Below, piece by piece: positions 1-13,716 of a stretch of DNA of 13,716 nucleotides. The stretch comes from a virus (Duplodnaviria > Heunggongvirae > Uroviricota > Caudoviricetes), in IMG/VR virus record IMGVR_UViG_2778261086_000003, positions 1 to 13,716 of that record, one strand, 5' to 3'. The notes beneath the pieces are model-generated. The model made no database searches. It was not told where the DNA came from and worked only from the letters and a program-made list of their open reading frames with translations. The translations under genes were made by a program, and so were the position numbers. Positions within the stretch are counted from its first letter, which is position 1, and each line of letters starts with the position of its first letter.

Positions 1-867
1 TCAAAGGGGAGGTTCTGGTAGTTGCATCCAGTCGGTTACATTGCGACTCTGTGTTTCGAAAAATTCATCACCATTGCGGACAATATCGAAAAACTCTCCG
101 TCCCGATATTGCGCATAAAGAACGAATGCGCCATCACATAAAATAATTACGTGCTGATTATCATCAGGCATTCGCTCACTACAGCTTATCCAACCATCCG
201 GAGTTACCGGAACTTGCGGAATGGCTGTCTGCTCTCGAACGTCATTAGGCGCTATAGGTTCTGCTGCCAACTGACTGGCATATTTGTTAATGGTAACGAT
301 AAGCTCTTGCTCGGCCTCATCCAGACAATCACCGATACCTCGCCTGTCACCGTCAAAATCATCGAAATCGGCACGAATCTTGGCAACCTCCCGGATTGCG
401 GACAACACCTCACTAGGAATTACCGGATAGTTGGTTGACGTTTCCGCGATTTCCCGAAAATTATTGGTTGACGAATTCTTGTTTTCCCGAAAGTTTCCGG
501 ACTGAAGCATGGCGGCGCGGCAGGAGTTCCAGCCTCTCACCTCTGCAATAGCGGCAACAGCATCGACCGCGTACATTTTAAGAGGGTTAGGCATTGGTTT
601 TTCTTCAGGTACTACTGGCACTGGAGGGGTGGCATAAACAGGAATAACGTCCGATTGATCTTTATTACTTTCATCCGTCAAAGCCCAGAATAATTTCCCG
701 GCCGGATGTTTGAAAATATAAGCAACTGGATCTGCTTCCAGCGATGCCAGTGCAATTCGTGCCAGTTCTTCCGCTTCTTCTGCTGGCAGTACAACGTTGC
801 TACCAGGTCCGTATGTTTCGCGCCACTGCTTGATTGTAAGTAGTCGCTCTTTGGTAATAGTGGTCAT
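1..867 (-). CDS. DUF551-domain phage protein (288 aa)
   Basis: Complete ORF ending with a stop at 1-3. The C-terminal segment (MPDDNQHVIILCDGAFVLYAQYRDGEFFDIV...) resembles the DUF551 domain common in early-left regions of lambdoid prophages. Its start overlaps the stop of the upstream HNH gene by 4 nt. Family assigned from memory. Confidence 0.65.
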   Translation of the reverse strand: MTTITKERLLTIKQWRETYGPGSNVVLPAEEAEELARIALASLEADPVAYIFKHPAGKLFWALTDESNKDQSDVIPVYATPPVPVVPEEKPMPNPLKMYAVDAVAAIAEVRGWNSCRAAMLQSGNFRENKNSSTNNFREIAETSTNYPVIPSEVLSAIREVAKIRADFDDFDGDRRGIGDCLDEAEQELIVTINKYASQLAAEPIAPNDVREQTAIPQVPVTPDGWISCSERMPDDNQHVIILCDGAFVLYAQYRDGEFFDIVRNGDEFFETQSRNVTDWMQLPEPPL

Positions 868-1229
868 ACCGTAGCCCCTTCTTGATATTTTTCAAACCAG
901 AACACAACCGGGTCAGATTTCATTTCAACCAATCCCATACGAACCAGCGCTTTGCCTTTCCCGGATGCAAGGAATTCACGACGACCATCACTGATAATTC
1001 GCCGATAATCTTCCAGGCTACTGCAATGCTTGTGCAGATTGCATGGGTGGCATGCCGGAACCATGTTGGATATATCGTCACGTTCCTGGTGAAGCATATT
1101 TCCATCAAAACGAATGACCGGTTTTACATGGTCTGCATGCCACTTTTCGCCAAGTTCACAGCCGCAATAAGCACAGCGACCGCCAAACTTCATGCGCAAT
1201 TCTGCACGTTGTTTTTTCGTCAGTGCCAT
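864..1229 (-). CDS. HNH endonuclease (122 aa)
   Basis: Start placed at the internal ATG (1229-1227), preceded by GGAG and lying immediately after the upstream gene's stop (1231-1233); the longer ORF-track start at 1391 would overlap the Ead-like gene. Protein carries an HNH-type motif: CAYCGC...HADHVKP...CHPCNLHKH. Confidence 0.75.
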   Translation of the reverse strand: MALTKKQRAELRMKFGGRCAYCGCELGEKWHADHVKPVIRFDGNMLHQERDDISNMVPACHPCNLHKHCSSLEDYRRIISDGRREFLASGKGKALVRMGLVEMKSDPVVFWFEKYQEGATV

Positions 1230-1230
1230 T

Positions 1231-1920
1231 TCACTCTCCTTTGATGCGAATGCCAGCGGAGCGCTCGGCTTCACTTTGTTCCCAAAACCACTTGTGAAGC
1301 GCCATAAGCTTTTCGTCAATCGGTGCATATTTGCGATTAAAGTAGGCCTGAGCATCTTTCTCAGATTTGTCCGGCAATTCGCCAGGGCCAAACAGTGTGT
1401 TATAAATCCATGCCAGTCCGCTTTTAGCGTCGCCAGTTGCCTGCCATTCGATAATCGCAGCCTGCATGACCAGAATGTTTTTCCCGATTAACAGGTCCAG
1501 TTCTTTGAACCGGTTGCGGATGTATGCATTCTCGCTTTGTAATTTTGCGTTGCGCTTCTCTGCGGCTTCCAGCTCAACACGCAGCTTCCCTACCGTTAGC
1601 GCAATTTCCTCGTTCTCCTGGTCGCGGCGTTTGATGTATTGCTGTTTTCTTTCCAGCTCATCCAGCAGCGCCAAGACGGTAGCGGGATTGGCTGCGGCGA
1701 TGAATTCAGCATTGGCCTGCTGTTCCATTTGGAAATCTTCATCGAAACCGCTTTCTGGATGTGCTCCTTCAATTCTGCAAATAGGAATATATCCAGCAAC
1801 TTCACGATGAATTAGCGCATCATCACCATCAAATCGGCTCTCTCCATATTCGAGCGACCACTCACCACACGTTGCTTTTTCTGCCTTGGCCCGCAGTGCC
1901 TGAGAGTTAATTTCGCTCAC
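1231..1920 (-). CDS. Ead/Ea22-like phage early protein (229 aa), coiled-coil rich
   Basis: 229-aa ORF with a GTG start at 1920 that overlaps the TraR-like stop (GTGA). Central region is charged and heptad-like (ELERKQQYIKRRDQENEEIALTVGKLRVELEAAEKRNAKLQ). Composition and position match Ead/Ea22-family proteins of lambdoid phages. Confidence 0.6.
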   Translation of the reverse strand: MSEINSQALRAKAEKATCGEWSLEYGESRFDGDDALIHREVAGYIPICRIEGAHPESGFDEDFQMEQQANAEFIAAANPATVLALLDELERKQQYIKRRDQENEEIALTVGKLRVELEAAEKRNAKLQSENAYIRNRFKELDLLIGKNILVMQAAIIEWQATGDAKSGLAWIYNTLFGPGELPDKSEKDAQAYFNRKYAPIDEKLMALHKWFWEQSEAERSAGIRIKGE

Positions 1921-2138
1921 TTCGAACCTCTCTGTTTACTGATAAGCTCCAGATCTTCCTGGCAACTTGCACAAGTCCGACAACCCTGAACGGCCAGGCG
2001 TCTTCGCTCATCTATGGGATCGCCACACTCACAACAATGAGTGGCAGATATAGCCTGGTGGTTCAGGCGGCGCATTTTTATTGCTGTGTTGCGCTGTAAT
2101 TCTTCAATTTCTGATGCTGAATCAATGATGTCTGCCAT
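1917..2138 (-). CDS. TraR/DksA-family C4 zinc-finger protein (73 aa, lambda Orf73-like)
   Basis: 73 aa with a C-x2-C...C-x2-C arrangement (CCECGDPIDERRRLAVQGCRTCASCQ) typical of TraR/DksA C4 zinc fingers. Same size and position as the TraR homologue of phage lambda (Orf73). Confidence 0.8.
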   Translation of the reverse strand: MADIIDSASEIEELQRNTAIKMRRLNHQAISATHCCECGDPIDERRRLAVQGCRTCASCQEDLELISKQRGSK

Positions 2139-2144
2139 CTTTCA

Positions 2145-2234
2145 TTAATCCCTGAATTGTTGGTTAATACGCTTGAGGGTGAATGCGAATAATAAAAAAG
2201 GAGCCTGTAGCTCCATGATGATTTTGTTTTTCAT
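2145..2234 (-). CDS. candidate micro-ORF, 29 aa (MKNKIIMELQAPFLLFAFTLKRINQQFRD)
   Basis: Not in the ORF track (below its length cut-off). ATG lies 2 nt after the stop of the upstream 71-aa gene; its TAA lies 6 nt before the TraR-like ATG. It exactly fills the only gap in a tightly coupled operon. Speculative. Confidence 0.25.
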   Translation of the reverse strand: MKNKIIMELQAPFLLFAFTLKRINQQFRD

Positions 2235-2236
2235 GC

Positions 2237-2452
2237 TCACCGTTCCTTAAAGACGCCGTTTAACATGCCGATCGCCAGGCTTAAATGAGTCGGTGTGAAT
2301 CCCATCAGCGTTACCGTTTCGCGGTGCTTCTTCAGTACGCTACGGCAAATGTCATCGACGTTTTTATCCGGAAACTGCTGTCTGGCTTTTTTGATTTCAG
2401 AATTAGCCTGACGGGCAATACTGCGAAGGGCGTTTTCTTGCTGAGGTGTCAT
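2237..2452 (-). CDS. hypothetical phage protein (71 aa from ATG at 2452; alternative 93-aa form from 2518)
   Basis: ORF 2237-2518. I prefer the internal ATG at 2452 because it forms an ATGA overlap with the stop of the 27-aa micro-ORF upstream. No family recognised. Confidence 0.5.
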   Translation of the reverse strand: MTPQQENALRSIARQANSEIKKARQQFPDKNVDDICRSVLKKHRETVTLMGFTPTHLSLAIGMLNGVFKER

Positions 2453-2532
2453 TGAACAAGTCCCATGTCGGCAAGCATAAGCACACAGAATATGAAGCCC
2501 GCTGCCAGAAAAATGCATTCAGTGGTTGTCAT
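2449..2532 (-). CDS. candidate micro-ORF, 27-aa hydrophobic peptide (MTTTECIFLAAGFIFCVLMLADMGLVQ)
   Basis: Hand-translated from the minus strand. Its ATG overlaps the stop of the 63-aa gene (ATGA, 2532-2529) and its TGA overlaps the ATG at 2452 (ATGA). One predicted transmembrane helix. Not in the ORF track. Confidence 0.3.
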   Translation of the reverse strand: MTTTECIFLAAGFIFCVLMLADMGLVQ

Positions 2533-2720
2533 ACCTGGTCTCTCTCATCTGCTTCTGCTTTCGCCACCATCATTTCCAGCTTTTGTGAAAGGGATGCGGC
2601 TAACGTATGAAATTCTTCGTCTGTTTCTACTGGTATTGGCACAAACCTGACTCCAATTTGAGCGAGGCTATGTGCCATCTCAATGCTCGTTCTTAACTCA
2701 ACAGGAGATGCTTTGTGCAT
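2529..2720 (-). CDS. hypothetical small phage protein (63 aa)
   Basis: First ORF of the leftward gene chain, acidic C-terminus (AKAEADERDQV). No confident family assignment. Confidence 0.5.
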   Translation of the reverse strand: MHKASPVELRTSIEMAHSLAQIGVRFVPIPVETDEEFHTLAASLSQKLEMMVAKAEADERDQV

Positions 2721-3046
2721 ACAGCTCCCCGTTTATTATTTATCTCCTCAGCCAGCCGCTGTGCTTTCAGGGGATTTCGGGTAACAGAAAGGCCGGGAAA
2801 TACCCAGCCTCGCTTTGTAACGGAGTAGACGAAAGTGATCGCGCCTATGAAACCAAGGACCTGGTTGATGTCGTAACCGGCGAAATCACTACTATCCAGT
2901 CGTTACGCCATACCTCCGATCTTGATACCGGAGAGATGTATGTCTTCCTGTGTAAGGTTGAAGCCTGGGCGATGAATATTGGCTGCCACCTGACTATTCC
3001 ACAGAGCTGCGAGTTTCAGCTGCTGCGCGACAAGCAGGAGGCGTAA
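2672..3046 (+). CDS. hypothetical protein, possibly the 3' remnant of a nin-region gene
   Basis: Reading frame ends at a TAA (3044-3046) that overlaps the ninE ATG. It has no convincing ATG with a ribosome-binding site, and its 5' end overlaps the divergent 63-aa gene. May be a truncated remnant left by a deletion. Confidence 0.3.
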   Translation: MPSQCSFLTQQEMLCAYSSPFIIYLLSQPLCFQGISGNRKAGKYPASLCNGVDESDRAYETKDLVDVVTGEITTIQSLRHTSDLDTGEMYVFLCKVEAWAMNIGCHLTIPQSCEFQLLRDKQEA

Positions 3047-3216
3047 TGGCTACACCGCTTATTCGTGTCATGAACGGACACATCTACAGAGTACCAAATC
3101 GTCGTAAGCGTAAACCTGAGCTGAAGCCATCCGAAATACCAACACTGCTCGGATATACCGCCAGCCTGGTTGATAAAAAATGGTTGCGACTGGCAGCAAG
3201 GAGGAGTCATGGCTGA
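3046..3216 (+). CDS. ninE: NinE protein (56 aa)
   Basis: Hand translation [56 protein letters not shown] matches the NinE family. AGGAGG lies 6 nt upstream; the stop overlaps the ybcO start region. Confidence 0.85.
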   Translation: MATPLIRVMNGHIYRVPNRRKRKPELKPSEIPTLLGYTASLVDKKWLRLAARRSHG

Positions 3217-3499
3217 TTTGAGAAAAGCAGCGCGTGGTCGGGAATGCCAGGTAAGAATCCCTGGCGTATGTAATGGCAACCCTGAAACGTCTGTACTGGC
3301 ACATATCCGGCTGACTGGATTGTGCGGCACCGGTACGAAACCGCCAGACCTGATTGCCACCATTGCATGTTCTGCCTGCCACGACGAAATCGACCGCCGC
3401 ACGCATTTTGTTGACGCTGGATATGCAAAAGAATGCGCGCTGGAAGGTATGGCGAGAACACAGGTTATCTGGCTGAAAGAGGGGGTTATTAAGGCGTGA
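3209..3499 (+). CDS. ybcO: YbcO-family nin-region protein (putative Zn-binding nuclease, 96 aa)
   Basis: [37 protein letters not shown]... with GGAGG at 3201-3205. Conserved Cys/His pattern. Sits in the ninE-ybcO-rusA order seen in DLP12-type prophages. Confidence 0.85.
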
Positions 3500-3858
3500 A
3501 TACCTACAGCATCACATTACCCTGGCCTCCGAGCAATAATCGCTATTACCGCCATAATCGCGGGCGCACGCACGTCAGCGCAGAGGGGCAGGCATACCGC
3601 GATAACGTCGCCCGAATCATTAAAAACGCAATGCTGGATATCGGCCTGGCTATGCCTGTGAAAATCCGCATTGAGTGCCACATGCCGGATCGCCGTCGCC
3701 GTGACCTGGATAATCTGCAAAAAGCCGCTTTTGACGCACTCACTAAAGCAGGTTTCTGGCTGGATGATGCTCAGGTCGTTGATTACCGCGTTGTGAAGAT
3801 GCCTGTTACCAAAGGTGGGAGGCTGGAACTGACCATCACCGAAATGGGGAATGAATGA
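3496..3858 (+). CDS. rusA: RusA Holliday-junction resolvase (120 aa)
   Basis: GTG start overlapping the ybcO stop (GTGA). Sequence [28 protein letters not shown]...[10 protein letters not shown] is recognisable as RusA. Confidence 0.9.
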
Positions 3859-3995
3859 TGTTTGAGTTTTATATGGCAGAACTTCTTCGCCACCGCTGGG
3901 GGCATCTGCGCTTATATCGTTTCCCCGGTTCTGTTTTGACCGATTACCGAATACTGAAGAATTACGCCAAAACCCTGACAGGAGCAGGAGTATGA
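3855..3995 (+). CDS. ylcG: YlcG small protein (46 aa)
   Basis: Hand-translated: [50 protein letters not shown] overlap with the rusA stop. Lies between rusA and Q as in DLP12. Confidence 0.75.
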
Positions 3996-4080
3996 AGTCA
4001 GAGATAACAATCAACTAATACTGTTTTGTTGATTTTTGCTTGTAATTGGCGTTCTGGTCTGATTTTTGTGGAGTAAGTTG

Positions 4081-4458
4081 ATGCGTGATATTCAGATGGT
4101 TCTTGAGCGTTGGGGAGCGTGGGCGGCTAATAATCATGAAGATGTGACCTGGTCGTCCATTGCCGCCGGTTTTAAGGGATTAATTACTTCAAAAGTAAAA
4201 TCTCGCCCGCAATGTTGTGACGATGACGCGATGATTATTTGCGGGTGCATGGCCCGTCTGAAAAAGAACAACAGCGATTTGCATGATTTATTGGTGGACT
4301 ATTATGTCGGCGGCATGACTTTTATGGCGCTTGCACGTAAGCATGGGCGATCTGATTGTTGGGTTGGCAGGATGCTCCAGAAAGCTGAGGGCGTAGTGGA
4401 GGGTATGCTGATGGTGTTGGATCTCCGATTGGAGATGGATGCTGATTGTTCGAAATAA
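4081..4458 (+). CDS. quuD: late-gene antiterminator Q (QuuD-like, 125 aa)
   Basis: ATG at 4081 preceded by GGAG (4070-4073); the ORF-track start at 4066 is a TTG extension. [24 protein letters not shown]... resembles DLP12/phage-82-type Q. Followed by a terminator, as expected for the pR'/tR' arrangement. Confidence 0.8.
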
Positions 4459-4558
4459 TTAAAGGAAAAGTTGCTGTCTGATTGTCATTAGTCTAACATT
4501 TTAAATGTTGGAATCGCAACGTAGTTATTATCATATAACAGCTTGTTTCCTGATTTAG
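4459..4558 (+). promoter_or_regulatory. putative late promoter and Q-utilisation region
   Basis: Position only: in lambdoid phages pR' and qut lie between Q and tR'. Weak -35/-10 candidates (TTGCTG...TAACAT) but no confident match. Confidence 0.3.
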
Positions 4559-4585
4559 CCAGCCTCCCCAAAGGCTGGTTTTTTT
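4559..4585 (+). terminator. rho-independent terminator (tR'-like)
   Basis: Stem CCAGCCT (4559-4565), loop CCCCAA, stem AGGCTGG (4572-4578), then TTTTTTT (4579-4585). Plus-strand only; the reverse read has no U-tract. Confidence 0.65.
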
Positions 4586-4613
4586 CTAATAAGTATTATT
4601 TCGGGTAGGGATT

Positions 4614-5138
4614 TTATTGTTTAACCCATAATAATTCATTGACATTGAATCCCAACTTTTGAGCGGTTCGCACATAGTCTGCTTTTACTTTATCTGGAAT
4701 AGTTGGGGTCCTTGCCAGAATCCATAGGTATTCTCTGTTCGGACCACTGACAAGAGCATACTTATACTCATCATCCAGTTTGATTACATTATAGCCACCA
4801 TAGAAGGGGCCAAAAAACGAAACCTTCAATGCTGCAGTTTTAGTATCTCCAGTAAAGTATGCTTTACCTTCGCTCTCGCTCCATTTATTTTTCGTTGGAT
4901 CGTATCCACGGTTAAGTACACGAATCCCTCCGTCGTTCCGTTTTCCATAAGTAGCGCTGACCTGTTCCAGATCACGTTCGAACCGGTTCTCGAGGCGAGC
5001 TATTTCATACCATTTTCCGAGGTAGCGGTTGGCGTCAAAATTTGTAATCGGCTGCACACCTTTAGGTGGTGTCGGGGCCTTACATGCTATAAGAGTGAAA
5101 GAGAGTGCAATGCCAGTCAACACAGGCCATAACTTCAT
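4614..5138 (-). CDS. Blc-family bacterial lipocalin, outer-membrane lipoprotein (174 aa)
   Basis: Signal peptide with lipobox (LIAC), then lipocalin signatures (NFDANRYLGKWYEIARLENRFE...YLWILARTP). Homologous to but distinct from chromosomal Blc. Lower GC than flanking phage genes and antisense to late transcription. Confidence 0.85.
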   Translation of the reverse strand: MKLWPVLTGIALSFTLIACKAPTPPKGVQPITNFDANRYLGKWYEIARLENRFERDLEQVSATYGKRNDGGIRVLNRGYDPTKNKWSESEGKAYFTGDTKTAALKVSFFGPFYGGYNVIKLDDEYKYALVSGPNREYLWILARTPTIPDKVKADYVRTAQKLGFNVNELLWVKQ

Positions 5139-5330
5139 AATAAATCCTGTACTTTTGATAGTTGAGAGTAAGTATGAAAGATAGATGATTACGACCGATC
5201 ACTTAAAGAACTTTCATACTATATTAGGAATAGTCCATAACAGAAAAATTGTCAGTGATGACGCCAGAAAGGCAATTTATTCCGTGCACTACACAGTTTA
5301 TGTGTTAATGAATTAGTCAAGGGGGAGAAT

Positions 5331-6290
5331 ATGATAAAAAAACCTGTGATTGGAATCAGCGGTTGTTTGGCCGGTTCTGCTGTTCGTTTTGATGGTGGTC
5401 ACAAAAGAGCTGACTTTTTAATGGACAAATTAGTGGAATGGGTAACATTCAGACCAGTATGTCCGGAAATGGCTATAGGGCTGCCAGTTCCGCGTCCTGC
5501 TCTACGTCTTGTGCGCTCGACGCAAGGAAATATACGGATGTGTTTCAGCCACGACCAGAATGAGGATGTGACAGAGAGAATGACAGAGTTTAGTCGTTCT
5601 TATATGGACAAATTAAAGGATGTATCGGGGTTTGTGGTTTGTGCTAAATCTCCCAGCTGTGGCATGGAGCGCGTGCGTGTCTATGATGAAAATGGTAATC
5701 GAGGTCGTAAAGATGGAGTGGGACTATTTACGAGTACTTTGATGGAAAAGTTTTCCTGGCTACCGGTTGAAGAGGATGGGCGATTACATGATCCAGTGCT
5801 TCGTGAGAATTTTGTTGAAAGAGTTTTTGCTTTGCATGAGCTCAATCACCTTTACAAGGAGAAATTATCAAGAAGAGAGTTATTAGCTTTTCATAGTCGT
5901 TATAAGCTTCAGTTGTTGGCGCATAGTCAGGCAGGCTATAAAGATATGGGACCATTTGTGGCTGCAATACACGAGTGGGCGGACCTTGAATCATACTTTG
6001 AGGTGTATCGTGATAATCTGATGGCGATTCTCAGAAAACCAGCATCACGTAAAAATCACACGAATGTGCTGATGCATATACAGGGGTATTTTAGTAATTA
6101 CTTAAGTACACGCCAGCGTAAAGAGTTGAGCGAGGTTATACTTAACTATCGCTTTGGCACATTGCCTCTTCTTGCGCCGTTGACTCTGCTGAAGCATTAT
6201 CTGGGTGAGTATCCTAATGATTACTTGCTTACACAGAATTACTTCGATCCCTATCCGGACGAACTGGCTCTAAGACTGATGGTAAATTAA
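5331..6290 (+). CDS. DUF523-DUF1722 fusion protein (RudS/TudS-like putative thionucleoside desulfidase, 319 aa)
   Basis: N-terminus has the DUF523-type Cys pattern (GISGCLAG, PVCPE, CAKSPSCGM), consistent with a [4Fe-4S] TudS-like fold. The C-terminal ~150 aa resemble the DUF1722 (YbgA-like) domain. GGAG 4 nt before the ATG. Domain call from memory, not HMM-verified. Confidence 0.65.
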   Translation: MIKKPVIGISGCLAGSAVRFDGGHKRADFLMDKLVEWVTFRPVCPEMAIGLPVPRPALRLVRSTQGNIRMCFSHDQNEDVTERMTEFSRSYMDKLKDVSGFVVCAKSPSCGMERVRVYDENGNRGRKDGVGLFTSTLMEKFSWLPVEEDGRLHDPVLRENFVERVFALHELNHLYKEKLSRRELLAFHSRYKLQLLAHSQAGYKDMGPFVAAIHEWADLESYFEVYRDNLMAILRKPASRKNHTNVLMHIQGYFSNYLSTRQRKELSEVILNYRFGTLPLLAPLTLLKHYLGEYPNDYLLTQNYFDPYPDELALRLMVN

Positions 6291-6641
6291 TTGTATGCGA
6301 TATCATCCAAAAGGATGAGTTCCTGCATGCAGGATATTTACAATCGTAAAAACTACACTATGATACCCAGAGTGTCAGTTTGTATAAAAACTCTGTTTAC
6401 GCTGAAGAAACAATTGAGATGCAACTTAAAGTTGGTAAACATGCCAGTCAAAATATATAATATTATGATTCCACGCAGCTATATATAATATAACAGATTG
6501 GTTTAATAATTTGTCTTTGTGAGTTAAATACATAATTTTATACTTGTGATGCAATGAAATTTTCCTTATTGTTGAACTGGCGAATATTGATTTTCCACCT
6601 ATACTTACCTGGTGTAACCCCAATGATATCAGGTGGATAAT

Positions 6642-7373
6642 ATGCCATACATATGTTCTATCATTTTGGTGTTGAACTCGTTTGATGTCCGAATTGGTAA
6701 AGAAGATATTTTGTTTAAAAAAGGAAGTGCTGTTCTCATTGATTACAATTTAAAAGATTTTTTTTCATCAAATATAGATCATGTAATGATCGTAGATGTT
6801 GAAGAGAAAACAGTTAATGATTTCTTTAAAAGCAACACACTCTCACCTTTTTCTGTAAGAAGGTTTTATCCGGCATACTTGATGGTGGAATGTGAAGATT
6901 TTTCATTGTTAAAGAACTTGATTGCATGCTTGAATTGTGATGGCAGAACTGTGGATTTTGTTAGAAATCAAATATCACTTGCATGTCTTGCTATCTTATC
7001 TTCAGAGAAAATAGTGCAAAGTTTTTTATTTGGATGTCTTAATAGTTTAGGAAGTAAAGTTAAGGCTATTATTCACACGGATATATCTGCAGCATGGAGA
7101 CTTTGTGATATATCTTCAAGACTGTATCTGAGTGAAAGTCTGTTAAAAAGAAAATTAAAGCACGAAGGCTTATCATTTAGTAAGTTAATTCTTGAAGAGC
7201 GAATGGTGATGGCGGAAAGGTTATTAAGCTACAATTTATATTCTGTTGGAAAAGTTGCTGAGATATGCGGTTATGAAAACACGTCATATTTTGTAAGTGT
7301 TTTCAGAAGATATTTTGGTGTTCCTCCCCATCAATATTCATCAAGATTTTTTTTAGAAAAAGACATGATGTAA
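6642..7373 (+). CDS. AraC/XylS-family transcriptional regulator (243 aa)
   Basis: C-terminal AraC-type HTH region (LLKRKLKHEGLSFSKLILEERMVMAERLL...VGKVAEICGYENTSYFVSVFRRYFGVPPHQY). ATG at 6642 with AGGTGG 5 nt upstream; the ORF-track start at 6633 is a GTG extension. Very AT-rich gene and leader. Confidence 0.75.
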   Translation: MPYICSIILVLNSFDVRIGKEDILFKKGSAVLIDYNLKDFFSSNIDHVMIVDVEEKTVNDFFKSNTLSPFSVRRFYPAYLMVECEDFSLLKNLIACLNCDGRTVDFVRNQISLACLAILSSEKIVQSFLFGCLNSLGSKVKAIIHTDISAAWRLCDISSRLYLSESLLKRKLKHEGLSFSKLILEERMVMAERLLSYNLYSVGKVAEICGYENTSYFVSVFRRYFGVPPHQYSSRFFLEKDMM

Positions 7374-7434
7374 CGTGATGCGTTTTAATGATTTTGTAAT
7401 TTTCGTATTTGATAATTGTATGATGCTTTCAGCT

Positions 7435-7466
7435 ACGCCAGAATAATCGCTGGCGTTTTTCTTTTT
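7435..7466 (+). terminator. rho-independent terminator downstream of the AraC gene
   Basis: Stem CGCCAG (7436-7441), loop AATAATCG, stem CTGGCG (7450-7455), then TTTTTCTTTTT. Confidence 0.55.
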
Positions 7467-7561
7467 GAATAGATGTTCAAGCCTTACGCTAATGTAACTT
7501 CTATACCTTTCCTCTTCGTTCCGAACCGTGTACACCATCCGTTATTTGCGGAGGTGAGGCT

Positions 7562-7777
7562 ATGAAATCTATGGATAAGTTAACAACGGGCATTGCCTAC
7601 GGTACCTCCGCAGGCAGTGCTGGCTACTGGTTTTTACAGCTGCTCGATAAAGTCACGCCCTCACAGTGGGCAGCAATAGGTGTATTGGGTAGTCTGGTAT
7701 TTGGCCTGCTGACGTACCTGACAAACCTTTATTTCAAGATTAAAGAAGATAAGCGCAAGGCTGCGAGAGGTGAATAA
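7562..7777 (+). CDS. essD: class II holin (phage 21 S21-like pinholin, 71 aa)
   Basis: [26 protein letters not shown]...; two transmembrane segments; dual-start motif Met1-Lys-Ser-Met4. GGAGGTGAGG ribosome-binding site. Stop overlaps the endolysin ATG (TAATG). Symbol follows DLP12 naming. Confidence 0.85.
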
Positions 7778-8274
7778 TGCCTCCATCATTACGAAAAGCC
7801 GTTGCTGCGGCTATTGGTGGCGGGGCTATTGCTATAGCATCTGTGTTAATCACTGGCCCAAGTGGTAACGATGGTCTGGAAGGCGTCAGCTACATACCAT
7901 ATAAAGATATCGTTGGTGTATGGACTGTATGTTACGGGCATACCGGAAAAGACATTATGCTCGGTAAAACGTATACCGAAGCAGAATGCAAAGCCCTCCT
8001 GAATAAAGACCTTGCCACTGTCGCCAGACAAATTAACCCGTACATCAAAGTCGATATACCGGAAACAACGCGCGGCGCTCTTTACTCGTTCGTTTACAAC
8101 GTTGGTGCTGGAAATTTCAGAACATCGACGCTTCTTCGCAAAATAAACCAGGGCGATATCAAAGGCGCATGTGATCAGCTACGGCGCTGGACATACGCTG
8201 GCGGTAAGCAATGGAAAGGGCTGATGACTCGCCGTGAGATTGAGCGTGAAGTCTGTTTGTGGGGGCAACAATGA
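7777..8274 (+). CDS. rrrD: SAR endolysin (phage 21 R21-like lysozyme, 165 aa)
   Basis: N-terminal Gly/Ala-rich weakly hydrophobic SAR segment ([20 protein letters not shown]), then a T4-lysozyme-like catalytic core. Stop overlaps the next ATG (ATGA). Symbol follows DLP12 naming. Confidence 0.9.
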
Positions 8275-8503
8275 GTAGAGTAACCGCGATTATGGTTCGA
8301 AATGGGATGTTATCCGTGAACGTGTGCTCAAGCGTGACAAAGGACTGTGTCAGTTATGTCTGCGTGGTGGTGTGGTGCGTGAGGCGAAAACCGTTGACCA
8401 CATCATCCCTAAAGCACATGGCGGCACTGATGCCGACAGCAATCTGCAGAGCCTGTGCTGGCCGTGTCATAAGGCGAAGACGGCCCGTGAACGGCTGAAG
8501 TAA
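8271..8503 (+). pseudogene. Rz (spanin) start fused to the 3' fragment of an HNH endonuclease gene
   Basis: ATG at 8271 encodes MSRVTAI, identical to the first seven residues of lambda-type Rz, then diverges. A different frame (from ~8279, after an in-frame TAG at 8276-8278, to TAA 8501-8503) encodes SNRDYGSKWDVIRERVLKRDKGLCQLC...DHIIPKAHGGTDADSNLQSLCWPCHKAKTARERLK, an HNH C-terminus with no start codon. Confidence 0.6.
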
Positions 8504-8628
8504 GAACCAGTTCCCACTGCCAGAGGGGAGGGGCGGGTCAAATCCCTGTGACCTGACGTCTTCCGGACTGCCCGCCCCATCGTTTTTTTATACCCGCGAA
8601 AAATGAAATTTAACCAGGAGTGCCGCAT
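8504..8628. other. putative cos / packaging-site region
   Basis: Non-coding, GC-rich, with an imperfect inverted repeat (GGGGCGGG ... CCCGCCCC) and a T-tract, located between the HNH fragment and the small terminase gene, the usual cos position in HK97-like modules. Cleavage site not identifiable by eye. Confidence 0.3.
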
Positions 8629-9123
8629 ATGGCTGGAACGGCGGGGCGTTCCGGGCGTCGCCCCAAGCCAACGGCGCGCAAGGCGCTGGCCGGAAACCCC
8701 GGCAAGCGAGCCCTGAACAAAGATGAACCTGTTTTTACGCCCATCAAAGGTGTTGAGCCACCGGAGTGGTTCGCTGAAGAAGATCTCCCTCTCGCCACGA
8801 TCATGTGGCAACTGACAACCAAAGAACTCTGCGGTCAGGGCCTGCTGTGCGTGACTGACCTCGCGGTGCTTGAGCGGTGGTGCGTGGCCTATGAGTTCTG
8901 GCGACGTGCCGTGAAAAATATTGCCAGACAGGGCAACACCATCACCGGTGCAATGGGCGGCATGGTCAAAAATCCGGAGCTGACCGCCAAAAAAGAACAG
9001 GAGTCCGAGATGAGCAGCACGGGGGCAATGCTCGGACTCGACCCCAGCAGCCGTCAGCGTCTGATTGGCCTGGCGGGGCAGAAGAAAACCACTAACCCGT
9101 TTCTGAAAATCATCGAATCATGA
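8629..9123 (+). CDS. terminase small subunit (P27/HK97 gp1-like, 164 aa)
   Basis: ATG at 8629 with AGGAG 9 nt upstream; the ORF-track start at 8620 is a GTG extension. Basic N-terminus ([27 protein letters not shown]). Stop overlaps the large terminase ATG (ATGA). Confidence 0.8.
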
Positions 9124-9938
9124 GCCGGAAATCTTACCCCAACGTAAATGCTGCCAATCAGTATGCCCGGGATGTCGTGCGCGGAAAGATTGTGGCCTGC
9201 CAGTTTGTGATTCAGGCCTGCCAGCGCCATCTTGATGACCTGATGGAGGAAAAAAGTAAGTCGTTTCGTTACCGCTTCGACAAGGACCTGGCTGAACGGG
9301 CCGCGAAATTTATTCAGCTGTTGCCGCACACCAAGGGTGAGTGGGCATTTAAGAGGATGCCCATCACGCTGGAGCCGTGGCAGCTCTTTGTGATCTGCTG
9401 CGCGTTTGGCTGGGTCAATAAAGGCTCCCGGCTGCGCCGCTTCTGTGAGGTGTATACCGAAATCCCCCGTAAGAACGGCAAATCGGCAATCTCTGCCGGT
9501 GTCGCCCTGTATTGTTTTGCCTGTGATAACGAGTTTGGCGCGGAAGTGTATTCCGGTGCCACGACAGAGAAACAGGCGTGGGAAGTCTTTCGCCCGGCGC
9601 GACTGATGTGTAAACGCACACCCATGCTGACGGAAGCGTTCGGGATTGAGGTTAACGCCTCAAACATGAACCGTCCGGAGGATGGCGCGCGGTTTGAACC
9701 GCTGATCGGCAACCCCGGTGATGGTTCATCACCCCACTGTGCGGTGGTGGATGAATATCACGAGCACGCCACCGATGCGCTTTATACCACGATGCTTACC
9801 GGGATGGGGGCGCGACGTCAGCCACTGATGTGGGCCATCACCACCGCCGGGTACAACATTGAGGGGCCGTGCTACGACAAGCGGCGGGAAGTTATCGAGA
9901 TGCTCAACGGTTCGGTATCAAATCGGATGGCACGGTGA
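9120..9938 (+). pseudogene. terminase large subunit, 3'-truncated (N-terminal ATPase domain only, 272 codons)
   Basis: Walker A motif (EIPRKNGKS) and ATPase-domain sequence present. The reading frame stops after ...EMLNGSV, whereas intact large terminases are roughly twice this length. Downstream sequence switches to unrelated glycine-rich coding. Confidence 0.8.
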
Positions 9939-10600
9939 AAACGGCTCTCGAAAACCTTGGTTTGGGAGATGGCTCGGGGCGTTACAGCAAAACTGTCGTT
10001 TTTTCATCGTCGGGTTCATATACGTGGCCAGCTGACGTAAAACGAATTGACGTTATTCTGACTGCGGGGGGCGGCGGTGGCGGTGGATGTAACGCGGAGA
10101 ACGCAAATCAGACATTTTCAGGGGCTGGCGGAGGAGCCGGAGGTACTGTTTTTGCCACTATTTATGCGACAGACAACGATGCCGGGCCAGGGACCTATAC
10201 AGTGACAATTGGCAGCGGTGGTAGTGGTGCCAATGGGCCAGGGTCTGGAAATAATGGCGGTAATAGTTCGTTCATGACATTAACTGCGCTCGGCGGCCAG
10301 GGTGGGCAATGGGGCGGCGCTACAAATACCGCTGGCGGGCGCGGTGGCTCAGGCTCTGGCGGTTATAAAACTGAACAAGGCGGAGACGGTTCAGACGGAC
10401 AGGCGGGCCAGGCGCTATTAGTAGGCAATGGGGCATCGAGCTATTGGGGTGGCGGCGGCCGCGCTGGGCAACTGAGCGGTAATCCTGGAGTTTGCTCTGG
10501 CTCCGGCGGCGGGGGTGCATACGATAATAGCTATTCACACACGTCAGGACGTGGCGGGCACGGAGCTAATGGCGTGCTGGTAATTCGGGAGTTCATGTAA
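9869..10600 (+). CDS. glycine-rich tail-fibre C-terminal fragment (5' end missing; real start unknown)
   Basis: ORF of 243 codons overlapping the truncated terminase. Sequence ...[26 protein letters not shown]... followed by long GGxGG/GSG runs is characteristic of glycine-rich domains of phage tail fibres. Immediately followed by a tail fibre assembly gene. The first ~15 codons are probably terminase DNA read out of frame. Confidence 0.5.
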
Positions 10601-11005
10601 ATGAATGATATCTATGCAGTTGTTGATAATAACGTTGTTATTAATGTCATTATCTGGGACGGAATTTCTGAATGGAAACCAGAGGCTGGTAATTTAGTTC
10701 CGTTAAACGGCGATGCTGGCATCGGTTGGTCATATTCAGACGGAGTATTTACCGCGCCACCTCCCCCAGAACGCTCTCACAACGCGTTAGTTGCGGAGGC
10801 TGAGCTGCAGAAATCAGCACTACTGACCGTAGCAAATAACACAATAGCACCGCTGCAGGATGCCGTTGATTTGGAAATGGCGACAGACGATGAACAGGCG
10901 TTAATGCTGGCGTGGAAAAAATACAGGGTACTGCTGAACCGTGTTGATACCTCAGCGGCACCCGAAATAGAGTGGCCTACGCAACCGGGGGAGCGGGCCA
11001 GTTGA
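10601..11005 (+). CDS. tail fibre assembly protein (Tfa, 134 aa)
   Basis: C-terminus ...[48 protein letters not shown] matches the conserved Tfa chaperone C-terminal domain. Start is immediately after the upstream stop (TAAATG). Confidence 0.8.
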
Positions 11006-11129
11006 TATCAGGCGCAGCGTCAGCATCAACTGCTGTCACTGCGTCGATGTAGTCGAGTACCGCATTCAGCCGCGTTTTTTCATCATCAGTCAGTTTGCGG
11101 CCTGCACTTCTCCGTTGACATCTTTGTTA
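10977..11129 (-). pseudogene. decayed fragment of a second, convergent tail fibre assembly gene
   Basis: Minus-strand translation gives ...[38 protein letters not shown], sharing the TDDE...VD..AP.I.WP pattern of Tfa C-termini. No start codon in frame; upstream frames contain stops and a frameshift. Its 3' end overlaps the plus-strand tfa by about 28 bp. Confidence 0.4.
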
Positions 11130-11263
11130 TATGGTACAACTGCGCAGAGGCCTGTCTCTTCAATTGTGCCAGTTGAATACTACGATACAACGCTCGGCCT
11201 TCCTGTTTGGTGGAACATAACCACATCCACATGGAAAAGAGCTGATGGTGTAGATGTATAAAC

Positions 11264-11293
11264 TTAAAAAAGGCGCTTTTTAGCGCCTTTAAA
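11264..11293 (-). terminator. rho-independent terminator after the acyltransferase gene
   Basis: Stem AAAGGCGCT (11269-11277), loop TTTT, stem AGCGCCTTT (11282-11290). Read on the minus strand the hairpin is followed by a U-tract, directly after the acyltransferase stop at 11294-11296. Confidence 0.55.
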
Positions 11294-12415
11294 TTAAGAT
11301 ATTCTTTTAGCTATAGAATGACCTATATTTATAAACGGTTTTTCTATTACGTTATATATCAAGTAAGATAGGCTTATAGAAATTATGAGCGATGATATAT
11401 AAATGGCAAACGATCTATGTTCAGTGCTAATACCAATACTGGAACCGTAAAACTCAATAAACTGTATAACAGGAACATGAATCAGATAAAGTGAATATGA
11501 TATTCCACCAAGAGCAACAAGTGATTTATTGAATGAAATAACTTTATTATTTTCTAGAATAATAACACACAAAACAATCAGAAATGCAATATATGCAGAT
11601 CGCGTCAAACCATGTCCTTCAGACACCCCATTAAGCCAAAAAACAAACATCATTCCTAGAATGAAAACGCATAAACTATTTATAATAGAATTATTCATTC
11701 TTTTATGCCTAAGTAAAGGCATTGTCTCTGATATAATCATCCCTAAAATGAAATCATATACTATAGGATTGCCTATGAATCCTATATGAGAAAACACCCC
11801 TGTTTTTGCAATATTGAATGATTGGGCGTCAATTACTACCGAGTGGTTAAAGTAAAGAGAAATAATTGTACTTACAGCAACTAGAAAACATGATGTGATT
11901 AATACCCTGTATTTTATGCTTAATGACATGGATATTGCGAAAATAAAATAAAAATATATCTCGTACCCAAGTGACCATGAAACAATTAGCGTTCCCCACC
12001 CATAATATGGCGGTAGAGTTGAGACATCTAAAGGGATGAGAAGAAATGATTTTATAATATTATTTATAGAAAAAACACCACCCCATGATACGCCTGTGTA
12101 AATATTGTGGTAAAAAAGAAAAACATAAACGCTTAATACTATTGCGTAAACAGGATAAATTCTAAAAAATCTCTTTACAAGAAATGAGGCGGTATTTCTT
12201 AAAGATGTTTTTGTAAAGTTTTTAGTTGAGTATGATATTATAAATCCGCTTATTATAAAAAACAATTCAACTCCAAATATAGCATTCGCGGTTATCCTGT
12301 CCATGAAAGAACCAGGATCTACTTGCCCGAAAAGACCTCTATTATGACCAATAGCTACAGCAAGAGCTGCAATTCCACGAAGCGCTTCTATTCCGTATAA
12401 TTTATCTGTTTTCAT
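11294..12415 (-). CDS. acyltransferase-3 family integral membrane O-acyltransferase (Oac/OafA-like, ~373 aa)
   Basis: Multi-pass hydrophobic protein with the N-terminal acyltransferase-3 signature (LYGIEALRGIAALAVAIGH). Start placed at ATG 12415; the ORF-track start at 12418 is a TTG. Very AT-rich and adjacent to the integrase, as for O-antigen acetylase genes of Shigella phages. Confidence 0.85.
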   Translation of the reverse strand: MKTDKLYGIEALRGIAALAVAIGHNRGLFGQVDPGSFMDRITANAIFGVELFFIISGFIISYSTKNFTKTSLRNTASFLVKRFFRIYPVYAIVLSVYVFLFYHNIYTGVSWGGVFSINNIIKSFLLIPLDVSTLPPYYGWGTLIVSWSLGYEIYFYFIFAISMSLSIKYRVLITSCFLVAVSTIISLYFNHSVVIDAQSFNIAKTGVFSHIGFIGNPIVYDFILGMIISETMPLLRHKRMNNSIINSLCVFILGMMFVFWLNGVSEGHGLTRSAYIAFLIVLCVIILENNKVISFNKSLVALGGISYSLYLIHVPVIQFIEFYGSSIGISTEHRSFAIYISSLIISISLSYLIYNVIEKPFINIGHSIAKRIS

Positions 12416-12558
12416 CAAGTAATATAGTTAGTAGTTGATAAAATTGTTGCTGGAGTCTACCACCAAGAGCTTGGATGATCGACCAGTTAGCATCTCAAGC
12501 TGTATGCGTGAGACAAAAACGAGACACACAAAGCTTTGCAAGTCTTTGCGCTGTTTAC

Positions 12559-13716
12559 CTATGATACCTTCTCCTCAATCCAATCCGCCCACCACTGCAT
12601 CATTTCTCTGCGCTTATCGAGATACTGAGCATGGTTGTAAATCCCGCGCACAGATCCGCCGTTGGCATGTGCCAGTTGCACTTCAATAGCATCAGCAGGC
12701 CATTCGTGCTCGTTCATAATCGTGCTGAATTCATGCCTGAATCCGTGACCGCTTTCCAGACCTTCATAGCCGATTTGTTTGATCACAAGCAGTACAGCGT
12801 TCTCGCAAATTGGCTTCTTCTTATCGTTGCGCCCGGCAAAAACAAACTCTGATACTGGTTTGGTGATTGAACTTAGCGTAGTGAGAAGTTCAACTACCTG
12901 GTCTGACATAGGAACCACATGAATCTTGCGTCCCTTCATCACACTGGCCTCGATGGTGATAATCCTGTTTTCAAAATCGACGTTCTTCCATTGCATGGAA
13001 CGAAGCTCTTTTGTTCTTAGTGCTGTGTAGCGTAAAACTTTGGTCGCAATGAGAGATACGATACTTCCTGAAAATGTTGCAAGTGCTTTGTTGAATGCCG
13101 GGATCTGGTCGGCAGGTAAAAACGGGAAGTTCTTCTTGCGGTATCCTTTCATGGCGTCTGCAAGGTCAGGTGCCGGGTTATATTTAGCCCTTCCGGTGAC
13201 AATAGCGTAACGAAAAACCTCGCCGCATCTTCTGCGGGCTTTGTTGGCTCGCTCCATTGCACCGCGATCTTCAAATCTTCGGATTACTTCCAGCAGTTGC
13301 ATCGGCTCAATATCCTGAATTTCAAGACCGCCGATGATGGGTAAAATGTCGTCATCAAACATTTTGGCAAGTTCAGTTGCATAGCCTACTGACCAGACTT
13401 GCTTCTTGTGCTCGTACCATTCCTTGTAAATCGCACTAAATGAATTGTTGTTAGACGAAGCCTTTTTCGCCTTTACCGGATCGATGCCAACCGAGATGTC
13501 TTTCCTCGCAGTCCATGCCTTATCCCTTGCTTCCTGCAAAGTCATAAGCGGATATTTTCCGACAGTCAGGATTTTCTCCTTACCGTCAATCTTGTAGCGA
13601 AGCTGCCATACCTTTTTCCCTGATACAGGGACATAAAGGTACAGGCCATTACCATCGAGTAGGCGGTATGGTTTTTCTTTCGGCTTTGCTGCTTCAATCT
13701 GCTTAACGGTGAGCAT
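12559..13716 (-). CDS. tyrosine-type site-specific integrase (P4/CPS-53 IntS-like, 385 aa)
   Basis: Full ORF whose ATG is the last three bases of the window. C-terminal catalytic signature (HGFRHEF ... LAHANGGSVRGIYNHAQY). N-terminus MLTVKQIEAAKPKEKPYRLLDGNGLYLYVPV is typical of tRNA-associated P4-family integrases. Attachment site would lie beyond the window. Confidence 0.9.
   Translation of the reverse strand: MLTVKQIEAAKPKEKPYRLLDGNGLYLYVPVSGKKVWQLRYKIDGKEKILTVGKYPLMTLQEARDKAWTARKDISVGIDPVKAKKASSNNNSFSAIYKEWYEHKKQVWSVGYATELAKMFDDDILPIIGGLEIQDIEPMQLLEVIRRFEDRGAMERANKARRRCGEVFRYAIVTGRAKYNPAPDLADAMKGYRKKNFPFLPADQIPAFNKALATFSGSIVSLIATKVLRYTALRTKELRSMQWKNVDFENRIITIEASVMKGRKIHVVPMSDQVVELLTTLSSITKPVSEFVFAGRNDKKKPICENAVLLVIKQIGYEGLESGHGFRHEFSTIMNEHEWPADAIEVQLAHANGGSVRGIYNHAQYLDKRREMMQWWADWIEEKVS

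Follow-up and report, generated by a model that had tools for sequence, protein, structure and literature searches.

What became of the immunity and replication genes in a lambdoid prophage whose leftward early genes now lie almost directly against its nin genes? The question is raised by positions 2720 to 3046 of IMG/VR virus record IMGVR_UViG_2778261086_000003 (Caudoviricetes), from which we analyzed one stretch of 13,716 nucleotides (nt), positions 1 to 13,716, referred to here as the window. A preliminary description of the window had noted that only about 330 bp, covered by an open reading frame (ORF) with no convincing start, remain between the two gene blocks, and had proposed that the immunity and replication genes were lost. 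The best explanation overall, to which we assign a probability of about 90%, is one illegitimate deletion between two TA dinucleotides within a lambdoid prophage of the argW/intS (KplE1/CPS-53) type, at a recurrent hotspot.

Two truncated genes are joined at a TA dinucleotide

The boundaries of the two blocks hold as described: the leftward block ends at 2720, at the start of orf63 (DUF1382), and the nin block begins at 3046, at the start of ninE. When window positions 2300 to 3400 were compared by megablast with 50,697 phage records, 181 records were matched, none of them covering more than half of the query. Query positions 1 to 548 correspond to the TraR-orf61-orf63-orf60a segment of lambdoid phages, at 95 to 99% identity, while query positions 547 to 1101 correspond to ybcN-ninE-ybcO in phage records, which places the break at window position 2846/2847. 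Not one of the 181 records spans the junction. Since the halves are matched singly in these records, break at the same point, and are never spanned, the junction is not a chance pattern.

On the minus strand, orf63 (2529 to 2720) is intact, with a full-length match to PF07131 (E=3e-31). It is followed by a remnant of orf60a (DUF1317; 2693 to 2847, minus strand) that retains codons 11 to 60 and the stop codon and has lost its first 10 codons, including the start; these limits come from translation against orf60a of the intact relative PhiR26_1, and the left homology stops at 2847. On the plus strand, a remnant of ybcN (2846 to 3046) retains the last 66 codons and the stop codon (residues 86 to 151) and has lost the first 85 codons. 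In a three-way alignment, the deletion junction (2846 to 2847) reads …GATCGCGCC-TA-TGAAACC…, in which the TA is the sole sequence common to the two parental sites. The 124-amino-acid ORF (2672 to 3046, plus strand) consists of 58 codons running antisense through orf63 and orf60a, fused in-frame with YbcN residues 86 to 151. A search of its translation against Pfam matched no family; it is a chimera rather than a gene. The two blocks are thus adjacent, as had been stated, but the roughly 330 bp between them are not a gap: they are two truncated genes joined at 2846/2847. On these alignments, window positions 2720 to 3046 are a deletion scar and not an intergenic region.

The exact junction of the window is absent from 5,426 complete Escherichia coli genomes, from the GTDB species representatives, from IMG/VR, and from a metagenome collection. 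Only three complete E. coli genomes have orf60a near ybcN, and their junctions differ from that of the window, with either 32 or about 60 additional bp.

The deletion removed the immunity, replication, and Red recombination genes

Alignment to the intact phage PhiR26_1 also places the breakpoint at 2846/2847: the left flank ends at PhiR26_1 position 2633, inside orf60a, and the right flank resumes at position 13808, inside ybcN. The interval between these two points is 11,174 bp and is annotated as encoding exonuclease, Bet, Gam, Kil, a lipoprotein, cI, Cro, cII, O, P, Ren, PD-lambda-1, Rha, and hypothetical proteins. A single illegitimate deletion joined the TA of orf60a to the TA of ybcN and removed about 11.2 kb, a size that is relative to PhiR26_1 and not to the exact parental prophage of this strain, which is a weakness of the reconstruction. 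This event took out the orf60a start, exo, bet, gam, kil, the N/cIII region, cI, cro, cII, O, P, and ren, along with accessory genes and codons 1 to 85 of ybcN. A Pfam search found no repressor, Cro, N, O, or P gene anywhere in the 13.7-kb window, so that the proposed absence of these genes between the two blocks extends to the window as a whole. The proposed loss is supported, and it is larger than the preliminary description had listed: kil, the genes for Red recombination, and the 5' portion of the nin region are gone as well.

The deletion must have arisen in the prophage state, given that propagation as a phage depends on O and P. With the repressor, N, PR, and the origin all gone, the element should be incapable of induction or replication, and its intact Q and lysis genes would be left without their normal upstream transcription; no sigma-70-like promoter site was found 5' of ninE on the plus strand. 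The lambdoid gene order and homologues are present (exo-xis, nin, Q, holin/lysozyme/Rz, and terminase, with 95 to 99% DNA identity), while the functions needed for induction and propagation have been lost (the immunity and replication genes are gone, the large terminase, TerL, is truncated, and the head and tail genes are gone). In these respects the element belongs to a familiar kind, the defective lambdoid prophages.

The left breakpoint is a recurrent hotspot

The left breakpoint of the window, …GATCG(C/T)GCC^TA (here and below, carets mark crossover or cut positions), is identical by alignment to those of the TOK-001 prophage, which lies at the lambda attachment region near ybhC, and of the LR-64-1 prophage, which lies at argU/intD; the right breakpoints of the three differ. 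Pattern scans for the orf60a flank followed by anything but the wild-type continuation revealed further types. In total, other E. coli prophages contain at least 12 distinct rightward junction types at the same orf60a TA, with the flank …GATCG(C/T)(G/A)CC^TA. The rightward partners include ybcO, a P-like gene, a cro-like gene, and a tail-fibre gene, and one more type is found in TKEC21-59. Two leftward deletion types, one of them in DLP12 of E. coli K-12, extend from the same TA into the xis/int region. The independence of these events is judged from their distinct partner sites.

An unbiased scan with the left flank alone returned 120 IMG/VR loci. Among these, 5 have a deletion junction on this TA, only about 4 deletion junctions fall within the next 1,870 nt of the same loci, and there is 1 IS3-family insertion (IS, insertion sequence), 7 nt from the TA. 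When complete genomes were surveyed by using the intact 300-bp region as query, approximately one-tenth of the matching records had only a partial best match, and in a sample from the tail of the ranking, four records begin exactly at the T (a group that includes K-12 strain MC4100; locus L138, 3440 to 3850) and one ends exactly at the A. Taken together, these loci show that the left endpoint behaves as a recurrent, nucleotide-precise hotspot.

Two junctions are compound. In TOK-001 (locus L003, 6196 to 6230), a 26-nt piece of a cro-like gene is kept between two TA junctions, and in locus L031 (near +679 from the orf60a TA), a 20-nt piece of bet is kept in the same way. This implies either serial events or one multi-break event in a single lineage.

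Several other variations were seen in these loci. At positions 1929 to 1945 of locus L097, a 1,313-bp IS3-family element (ends TGAACCGCCCCGG…) has been inserted, with duplication of GAT, at a distance of 7 nt from the orf60a TA; this element is also found at two other prophage positions, and IS2-like insertions of 1,336 bp with 5-bp duplications occur in the same group of loci (L097, L090, and L099). Natural variants in which the hotspot TA is TC (…GCACCTCCCCGG…) are present in loci L083, L111, L134, and L135 and could act as a natural test of a TA requirement. In TKEC21-59 (locus L136, 4732 to 4739), a deletion of about 345 bp in replication gene O has an 8-nt overlap; it most likely arose as a repeat-mediated loss within the iteron/origin region and is of a class distinct from the TA junctions.

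The junctions have a common sequence signature

We looked for the intact parental sequences of the partners among the fetched loci. In every partner with a reconstructed parent, a TA is present at the crossover, with the left parent always supplying the base before the TA and the right parent the one after it. GGTA or TACC is present at 11 of 14 partner sites, compared with 15% of all TA sites (P=1.8e-7), and the partners of rightward orf60a events have G at +4 after the TA in 9 of 12 cases. When 61 half-sites were pooled, each read 5' to 3' toward the TA, the strongest feature was C at -4, which is present in 35 of them (57%, compared with a background of 23%; P=6.5e-9) and is the same feature as the G at +4, seen on the other strand. 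G is also enriched at -2 (P=5e-6) and, after that, at -1, where C is nearly absent. The flank motif is 5'-C-N-G-(G/T)^T-A, on one or both strands. The orf60a site, C-GCC^TA^CCC-G, has C(-4) on both strands.

An all-against-all catalogue of split alignments from approximately 136 loci contains IS insertions with target duplications, homeologous exchanges, and short-homology deletions. About 13 of the large short-homology deletions are of the TA type and 3 or 4 are not; the catalogue includes no inversion junction of the TA kind. Some sites other than orf60a have been used again in independent events, namely, ybcN_b (in LR-64-1, TOK-001, and L133), bet897 (in L074 and L097), and bet1604 (in L049 and L097).

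The prophage is probably of the argW/intS type and has lost further segments

The right end of the window is an intS-type integrase gene (12559 to 13716, minus strand; Pfam integrase domains). The closest genome for the right arm is that of strain 2018-05-2CC, in which the corresponding integrase gene is intS, adjoining tRNA-Arg and yfdC; the placement at argW/intS rests on relatives, since the tRNA, torI, and the host flanks lie outside the window.

Compared with 2018-05-2CC, the window has two additional junctions. At the second (8285 to 8293), about 1.35 kb following the lysis genes (Rz region) is absent, and the crossover lies within CGCGATTAT / CGCGGTTAT, which includes a TA (GAT-TA-T joined with GGT-TA-T). 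At the third (9916; …TCGGT^ATCAAAT…, GGT^G joined with GAT^A), the large terminase gene is truncated behind its ATPase domain and runs into a tail-fibre region, and about 4.9 kb of head and tail genes, including portal, protease, and tail genes, is absent. The T^A rule can accommodate either junction, and these two further deletions removed head and tail genes.

Strain Ec40743 has, at the same torI/argW locus, a collinear prophage with the order TraR-orf61-orf63-orf60a-exo…Q-lipocalin-YbgA. It retains exo-bet-gam-kil-cIII-ral and then jumps, via ISEc52, to ylcG'-Q, with the ral-to-ylcG segment lost. In 2018-05-2CC, an IS3 element is located upstream of ybcN. At this one locus, there have thus been at least three losses of the immunity/replication region, each by a route of its own.

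A sequence-specific break-and-join activity is the probable cause

The signature described above points to a sequence-specific break-and-join activity that most resembles a type IA topoisomerase. Very probably, a sequence-specific enzyme cuts 5' of the TA at both sites and joins a 3'-OH to the other 5' end. In detail, the enzyme would cut just 5' of the TA at each site and, probably acting on a single strand, link the 3'-OH of one site with the 5' end of the second; replication would then fix the change. A single-strand transfer between two cleavage sites would explain the parent-of-origin rule, the absence of inversions, and serial events that leave short fragments behind.

A type IA topoisomerase (Topo I or Topo III) is the leading candidate for this enzyme, although we regard the assignment as doubtful. 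The hallmark of this family is a cytosine four nucleotides 5' of the cut. E. coli Topo I is reported to cut at TA, with a strict requirement for C four nucleotides upstream, and its in vivo motif, TCNTT^A/T, is AT-rich, with the cut between T and A (PMC9352719). If the cut is set just 5' of the T, the junction sites are enriched in C four nucleotides 5' of the scissile bond. It is also possible, with odds a little short of even, that most large prophage-disarming deletions in E. coli, those of DLP12 included, come from one break-and-join activity at 5'-C-N-G-(G/T)^T-A, that this activity belongs to a host enzyme to which such a role has not been ascribed before, most plausibly a type IA topoisomerase, and that orf60a is a super-hotspot that has the motif on both strands. 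Candidate oligonucleotides from orf60a for cleavage by Topo I or Topo III are 5'-GATCGCGCCTACCCGG and its complement.

A number of observations weigh against this proposal. The sites do not match TCNTT^A/T, since they are G-rich at -1 and -2 and have C five nucleotides from the T^A bond; the C is one position further out than in the Topo I motif, which is why a cut 5' of the T has to be implied. A type IA enzyme needs single-stranded DNA, which would have to be available at each of two sites separated by 11 kb. The leftward partner sites intA and intB have no C(-4) on either strand. Both parents have C(-4) on the same strand in 13 of 19 events, which is no more than independence predicts; we had considered a same-strand requirement as a means of discriminating between models, and it was dropped because it gave no discrimination once the marginal enrichment was allowed for. 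The set of sites is modest (approximately 27) and was partly gathered with patterns that fix the orf60a flank. Finally, we found no published precedent for deletions mediated by type IA enzymes in E. coli in our incomplete coverage of the literature. Within that same coverage, we also found no earlier description of the TA-type deletion pattern, and papers on the exo-xis region and De Paepe 2014 contain nothing relevant on orf60a deletions.

Alternative explanations

The signature would also suit a dimeric enzyme, either a serine-type recombinase or an endonuclease, that cuts around or within the central TA of a loose palindrome, CSGG-TA-CCSG, after which the ends are rejoined. The pooled motif has two-fold symmetry, a single good half-site seems to suffice in each partner, a 2-bp crossover fits the chemistry of serine recombinases, and the fragments kept in TOK-001 and L031 resemble religated pieces. 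However, either a palindromic TA core or free ends would predict inversions, and none was seen. In addition, no conserved half-site extends past about 5 bp, and no candidate enzyme is common to these prophages. Known invertase sites have the form CC-NN-GG, in contrast to GG-TA-CC here. We consider a dimeric enzyme unlikely.

Another candidate is off-target activity of IS621, an IS110-family element with a bridge-RNA recombinase: orf60a would be the target, the partners would be pseudo-sites, and the top strand would be exchanged after T9. The orf60a site agrees with the bridge-RNA target, including the CT core, at 10 of 11 positions (ATCGCGC.CT.AC compared with ATCGGGC.CT.AC; ATCGCGCCTAC and ATCGGGCCTAC), and no other site within 18 kb of PhiR26_1 has as few as one mismatch. 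The top-strand exchange by IS621 falls between T9 and A10 (PMC11208158), and the crossover at orf60a is in register with this exchange point; T9 is nearly invariant, and C or G is preferred at position 8. Half-match and single-strand IS621 reactions have been reported (bioRxiv 10.64898/2026.08.31.748434), and a single-strand exchange would explain both why the left bases come from the left parent and why there are no inversions. The partners, however, match neither the target nor the donor (ACAGTAT.CT.TGTAT), the need for A at position 10 extends to both parents, the G at positions 7 and 8 and the C(-4) are unexplained, and events that join partner to partner without orf60a are common. Thus, the 11-nt target match is present, and neither an inserted element nor matching partner arms were found: in approximately 130 loci, there is no IS621 insertion or contig break at the orf60a site, and scans for an inserted copy with the patterns CCT^B and D-CT-ACCC gave only single-nucleotide variants, with no contig end there. 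We regard this explanation as distinctly unlikely. IS621-target-like 11-mers occur in the window at 2838 to 2848 (the orf60a site) and at 1342 on the minus strand, where CTCAGGCCTAC, in the HNH ORF, is one mismatch from the natural target in a repetitive extragenic palindromic (REP) sequence.

A third explanation concerns the parents of the junction rather than the enzyme: the two arms might come from two different resident lambdoid prophages joined by illegitimate recombination, and not from a deletion within one prophage. Several facts can be read in this way. The left arm (1 to 1905, with the DUF551, HNH, and Ea22-like genes) is never found beside the right arm in the genomes searched, the right arm is found by itself at the argW locus in 2018-05-2CC, and E. 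coli genomes hold a median of two copies of these sequences. On the other hand, the collinear prophage of Ec40743 indicates that a single prophage type has both arms, ordered and oriented as expected, recombination of prophages far from one another would cause the loss or inversion of essential parts of the chromosome, and mosaicism is known in exo-xis regions. An origin from two prophages is very unlikely, and a deletion within a single prophage is the better reading.

Could the junctions be ordinary microhomology-mediated deletions, formed by slippage or alternative end joining, that recur only because of selection against kil, N, and the replication genes? Selection surely shapes the survivors, because most of the deletions remove the lethal early region, and two-nucleotide homologies are common in end joining. 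Yet selection cannot yield single-nucleotide precision or a flanking motif, and leftward deletions that spare the lethal genes use the same TA. TA is the microhomology in about 20 of 21 junctions, although it accounts for 5% of dinucleotides, and flanking positions that the partners do not have in common are nonrandom. The variable junction homology and lack of a flanking motif that are characteristic of slippage were not what we found, and this explanation is highly improbable.

The same low probability applies to cleavage by DNA gyrase (or Topo IV), with exchange of subunits or repair of the break as the next step. The center of the gyrase consensus, cggcggTAt-gggg-aTAccgccg (supplement of PMC6379681), does contain GGTA/TACC half-sites, and orf60a is REP-like, REP/BIME-2 (bacterial interspersed mosaic) elements being gyrase sites. 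The geometry is wrong: the crossover lies inside the TA, 1 to 3 nt from the expected 4-bp staggered cuts, and the flanking bases segregate by parent, unlike what is predicted from a 4-bp heteroduplex. Gyrase subunit exchange was rejected for this lack of a 4-bp stagger. The possibility that the window has a natural, intact architecture, with the immunity genes kept elsewhere and 2720 to 3046 a conserved spacer, which the preliminary description had named as what would refute its reading, is negligible, since both flanking genes are truncated, none of the 181 phage records spans the junction, the exact junction is absent from the genome, IMG/VR, and metagenome collections searched and the three genomes in which orf60a and ybcN are close have other junctions, and the window contains no immunity or replication genes.

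Other activities were also considered. For GajA of the Bacillus cereus Gabija system, the predicted nick, CC^CGG, is 2 nt from the crossover, and about half of the partners do not fit S^RGG. The GajA 10-bp minimal site, CCCGGATATT, is present directly to the right of the hotspot TA in intact orf60a (locus L001, 2634 to 2643) and is deleted in the window. Judged by their general properties, the following were provisionally discounted, each for a misfit in cut position, in core sequence, or in the need for a resident element: RusA (which cuts 5' of CC), RuvC, secondary Int attachment sites, and Xer/dif; integron secondary sites (GWTMW), IS5 (YTAR), IS630, IS30, and IS1 ends; Hin/Gin/Pin sites, KpnI-like restriction, and bleomycin-type damage; and primase start sites and splicing-like removal.

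Other features of the window

Gene assignments across the window were made by Pfam. The left arm, all on the minus strand, begins with a DUF551 protein gene in the variable exo-xis region (1 to 867; PF04448, E=5.9e-19), an HNH endonuclease-like ORF (864 to 1391; PF01844, E=4.4e-6), and an Ead/Ea22-like gene (1231 to 1920; PF13935, E=3e-31). These are followed by a TraR/DksA zinc-finger gene at the position of lambda orf73 (1917 to 2138; PF01258, and TraR/DksA in relatives) and by an orf61-like gene (2237 to 2518) that is collinear with the PhiR26_1 gene annotated "hypothetical protein orf61."

To the right of the scar, on the plus strand, are ninE (3046 to 3216; PF05322, and annotated ninE in relatives), the putative nuclease gene ybcO (3209 to 3499; PF07102, E=8e-43), the Holliday-junction resolvase gene rusA (3496 to 3858; PF05866, E=6.9e-23), and an intact antiterminator gene Q (4081 to 4458; PF06530, E=9e-51), with a terminator-like hairpin downstream of Q (4557 to 4580; terminator scan). 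Between Q and the holin gene (4614 to 7373), at a site that corresponds to the position of nmpC in DLP12, there is cargo consisting of a lipocalin gene (minus strand), a DUF523/DUF1722 YbgA-like protein gene of the 2-thiouracil desulfurase family, and a gene for an AraC-type regulator. The same trio is found in several E. coli prophages at different integration sites.

The lysis and packaging genes that follow encode a holin, a lysozyme, the small terminase, and a large terminase with only its ATPase domain. The right end carries a glycine-rich tail-fibre piece, a tail-fibre assembly protein gene, an acyltransferase gene, and the integrase gene. At 10601 to 11232, behind a tail-fibre assembly gene, there is a short piece of a second such gene in inverted orientation, annotated in relatives as a partial tail fibre assembly protein; this arrangement appears to be what is left of an invertible tail-fibre segment that has lost its invertase gene.

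Comparison with known systems

The window resembles the KplE1/CPS-53 remnant at argW (intS…torI) in its locus, which is assigned through relatives, in its integrase, and in its heavy decay. The K-12 remnant differs in content; the window has the lipocalin, YbgA-like, and AraC cargo and an acyltransferase gene in place of gtr genes.

As in topoisomerase-mediated illegitimate recombination (eukaryotic and vaccinia Topo I models), the crossovers described here lie at preferred cleavage sequences and have little or no homology. The precedents known for such recombination involve type IB or type II enzymes. Judged from sequence, the likeness to E. coli Topo I consists of the enrichment of C four nucleotides 5' of the inferred cut and the TA at the cut (PMC9352719), while the G-rich -1 and -2 positions and an inferred cut one position 5' of the T^A bond are unlike that enzyme. 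With the REP targets of IS621, the orf60a site has 10 of 11 positions, the CT core, and the register in common; it differs in that there is no IS621 at the site and the partners are unmatched. Michel and Ehrlich reportedly observed deletions with one fixed endpoint at the nick site of a rolling-circle origin (in M13 and pC194). Such deletions are like those at the orf60a hotspot in having one precise recurrent endpoint and variable others with a short motif, and in being deletions only, and they are unlike them in that the hotspot is used in both directions and that partner-by-partner events occur without it. We know of no rolling-circle initiator or origin in orf60a.

The closest comparison is with DLP12 of E. 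coli K-12, which, like the element in the window, is a lambdoid prophage that has lost its immunity/replication region by internal deletion. DLP12 retains the nin-Q-lysis genes ybcN, ninE, ybcO, rusA, ylcG, Q, essD, and rrrD, and has exoD', P', and ren pseudogenes. Its left junction, GTTGTGAGG-TA-CCCGGATATT (xis region, TA, and orf60a-exo'), is on the identical orf60a TA, and its exo'-P' junction, CCCGGGAGG-TA-CGAGTATTGCC, is also of the TA type. The two prophages differ in integration site (argU/intD for DLP12 and argW/intS for the window), in the direction of the orf60a deletion (leftward in K-12 and rightward in the window), and in endpoints, as DLP12 keeps 279 bp of exo, the 3' part of P, and ren, while in the window orf60a passes straight to the middle of ybcN.

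By itself, the scar is a further example of prophage decay, which explains why the element would not be inducible despite its intact Q and lysis genes. If the deletions do come from a specific activity at defined TA sites, prophage domestication would gain a mechanistic component that can be tested genetically, E. coli would have a new source of illegitimate recombination, and the boundaries of the DLP12 pseudogenes in the K-12 reference genome would have an explanation. The deletion itself is ordinary; its breakpoint, as far as the compared loci indicate, is a member of a recurrent, sequence-defined class of junctions that this prophage has in common with K-12 DLP12.

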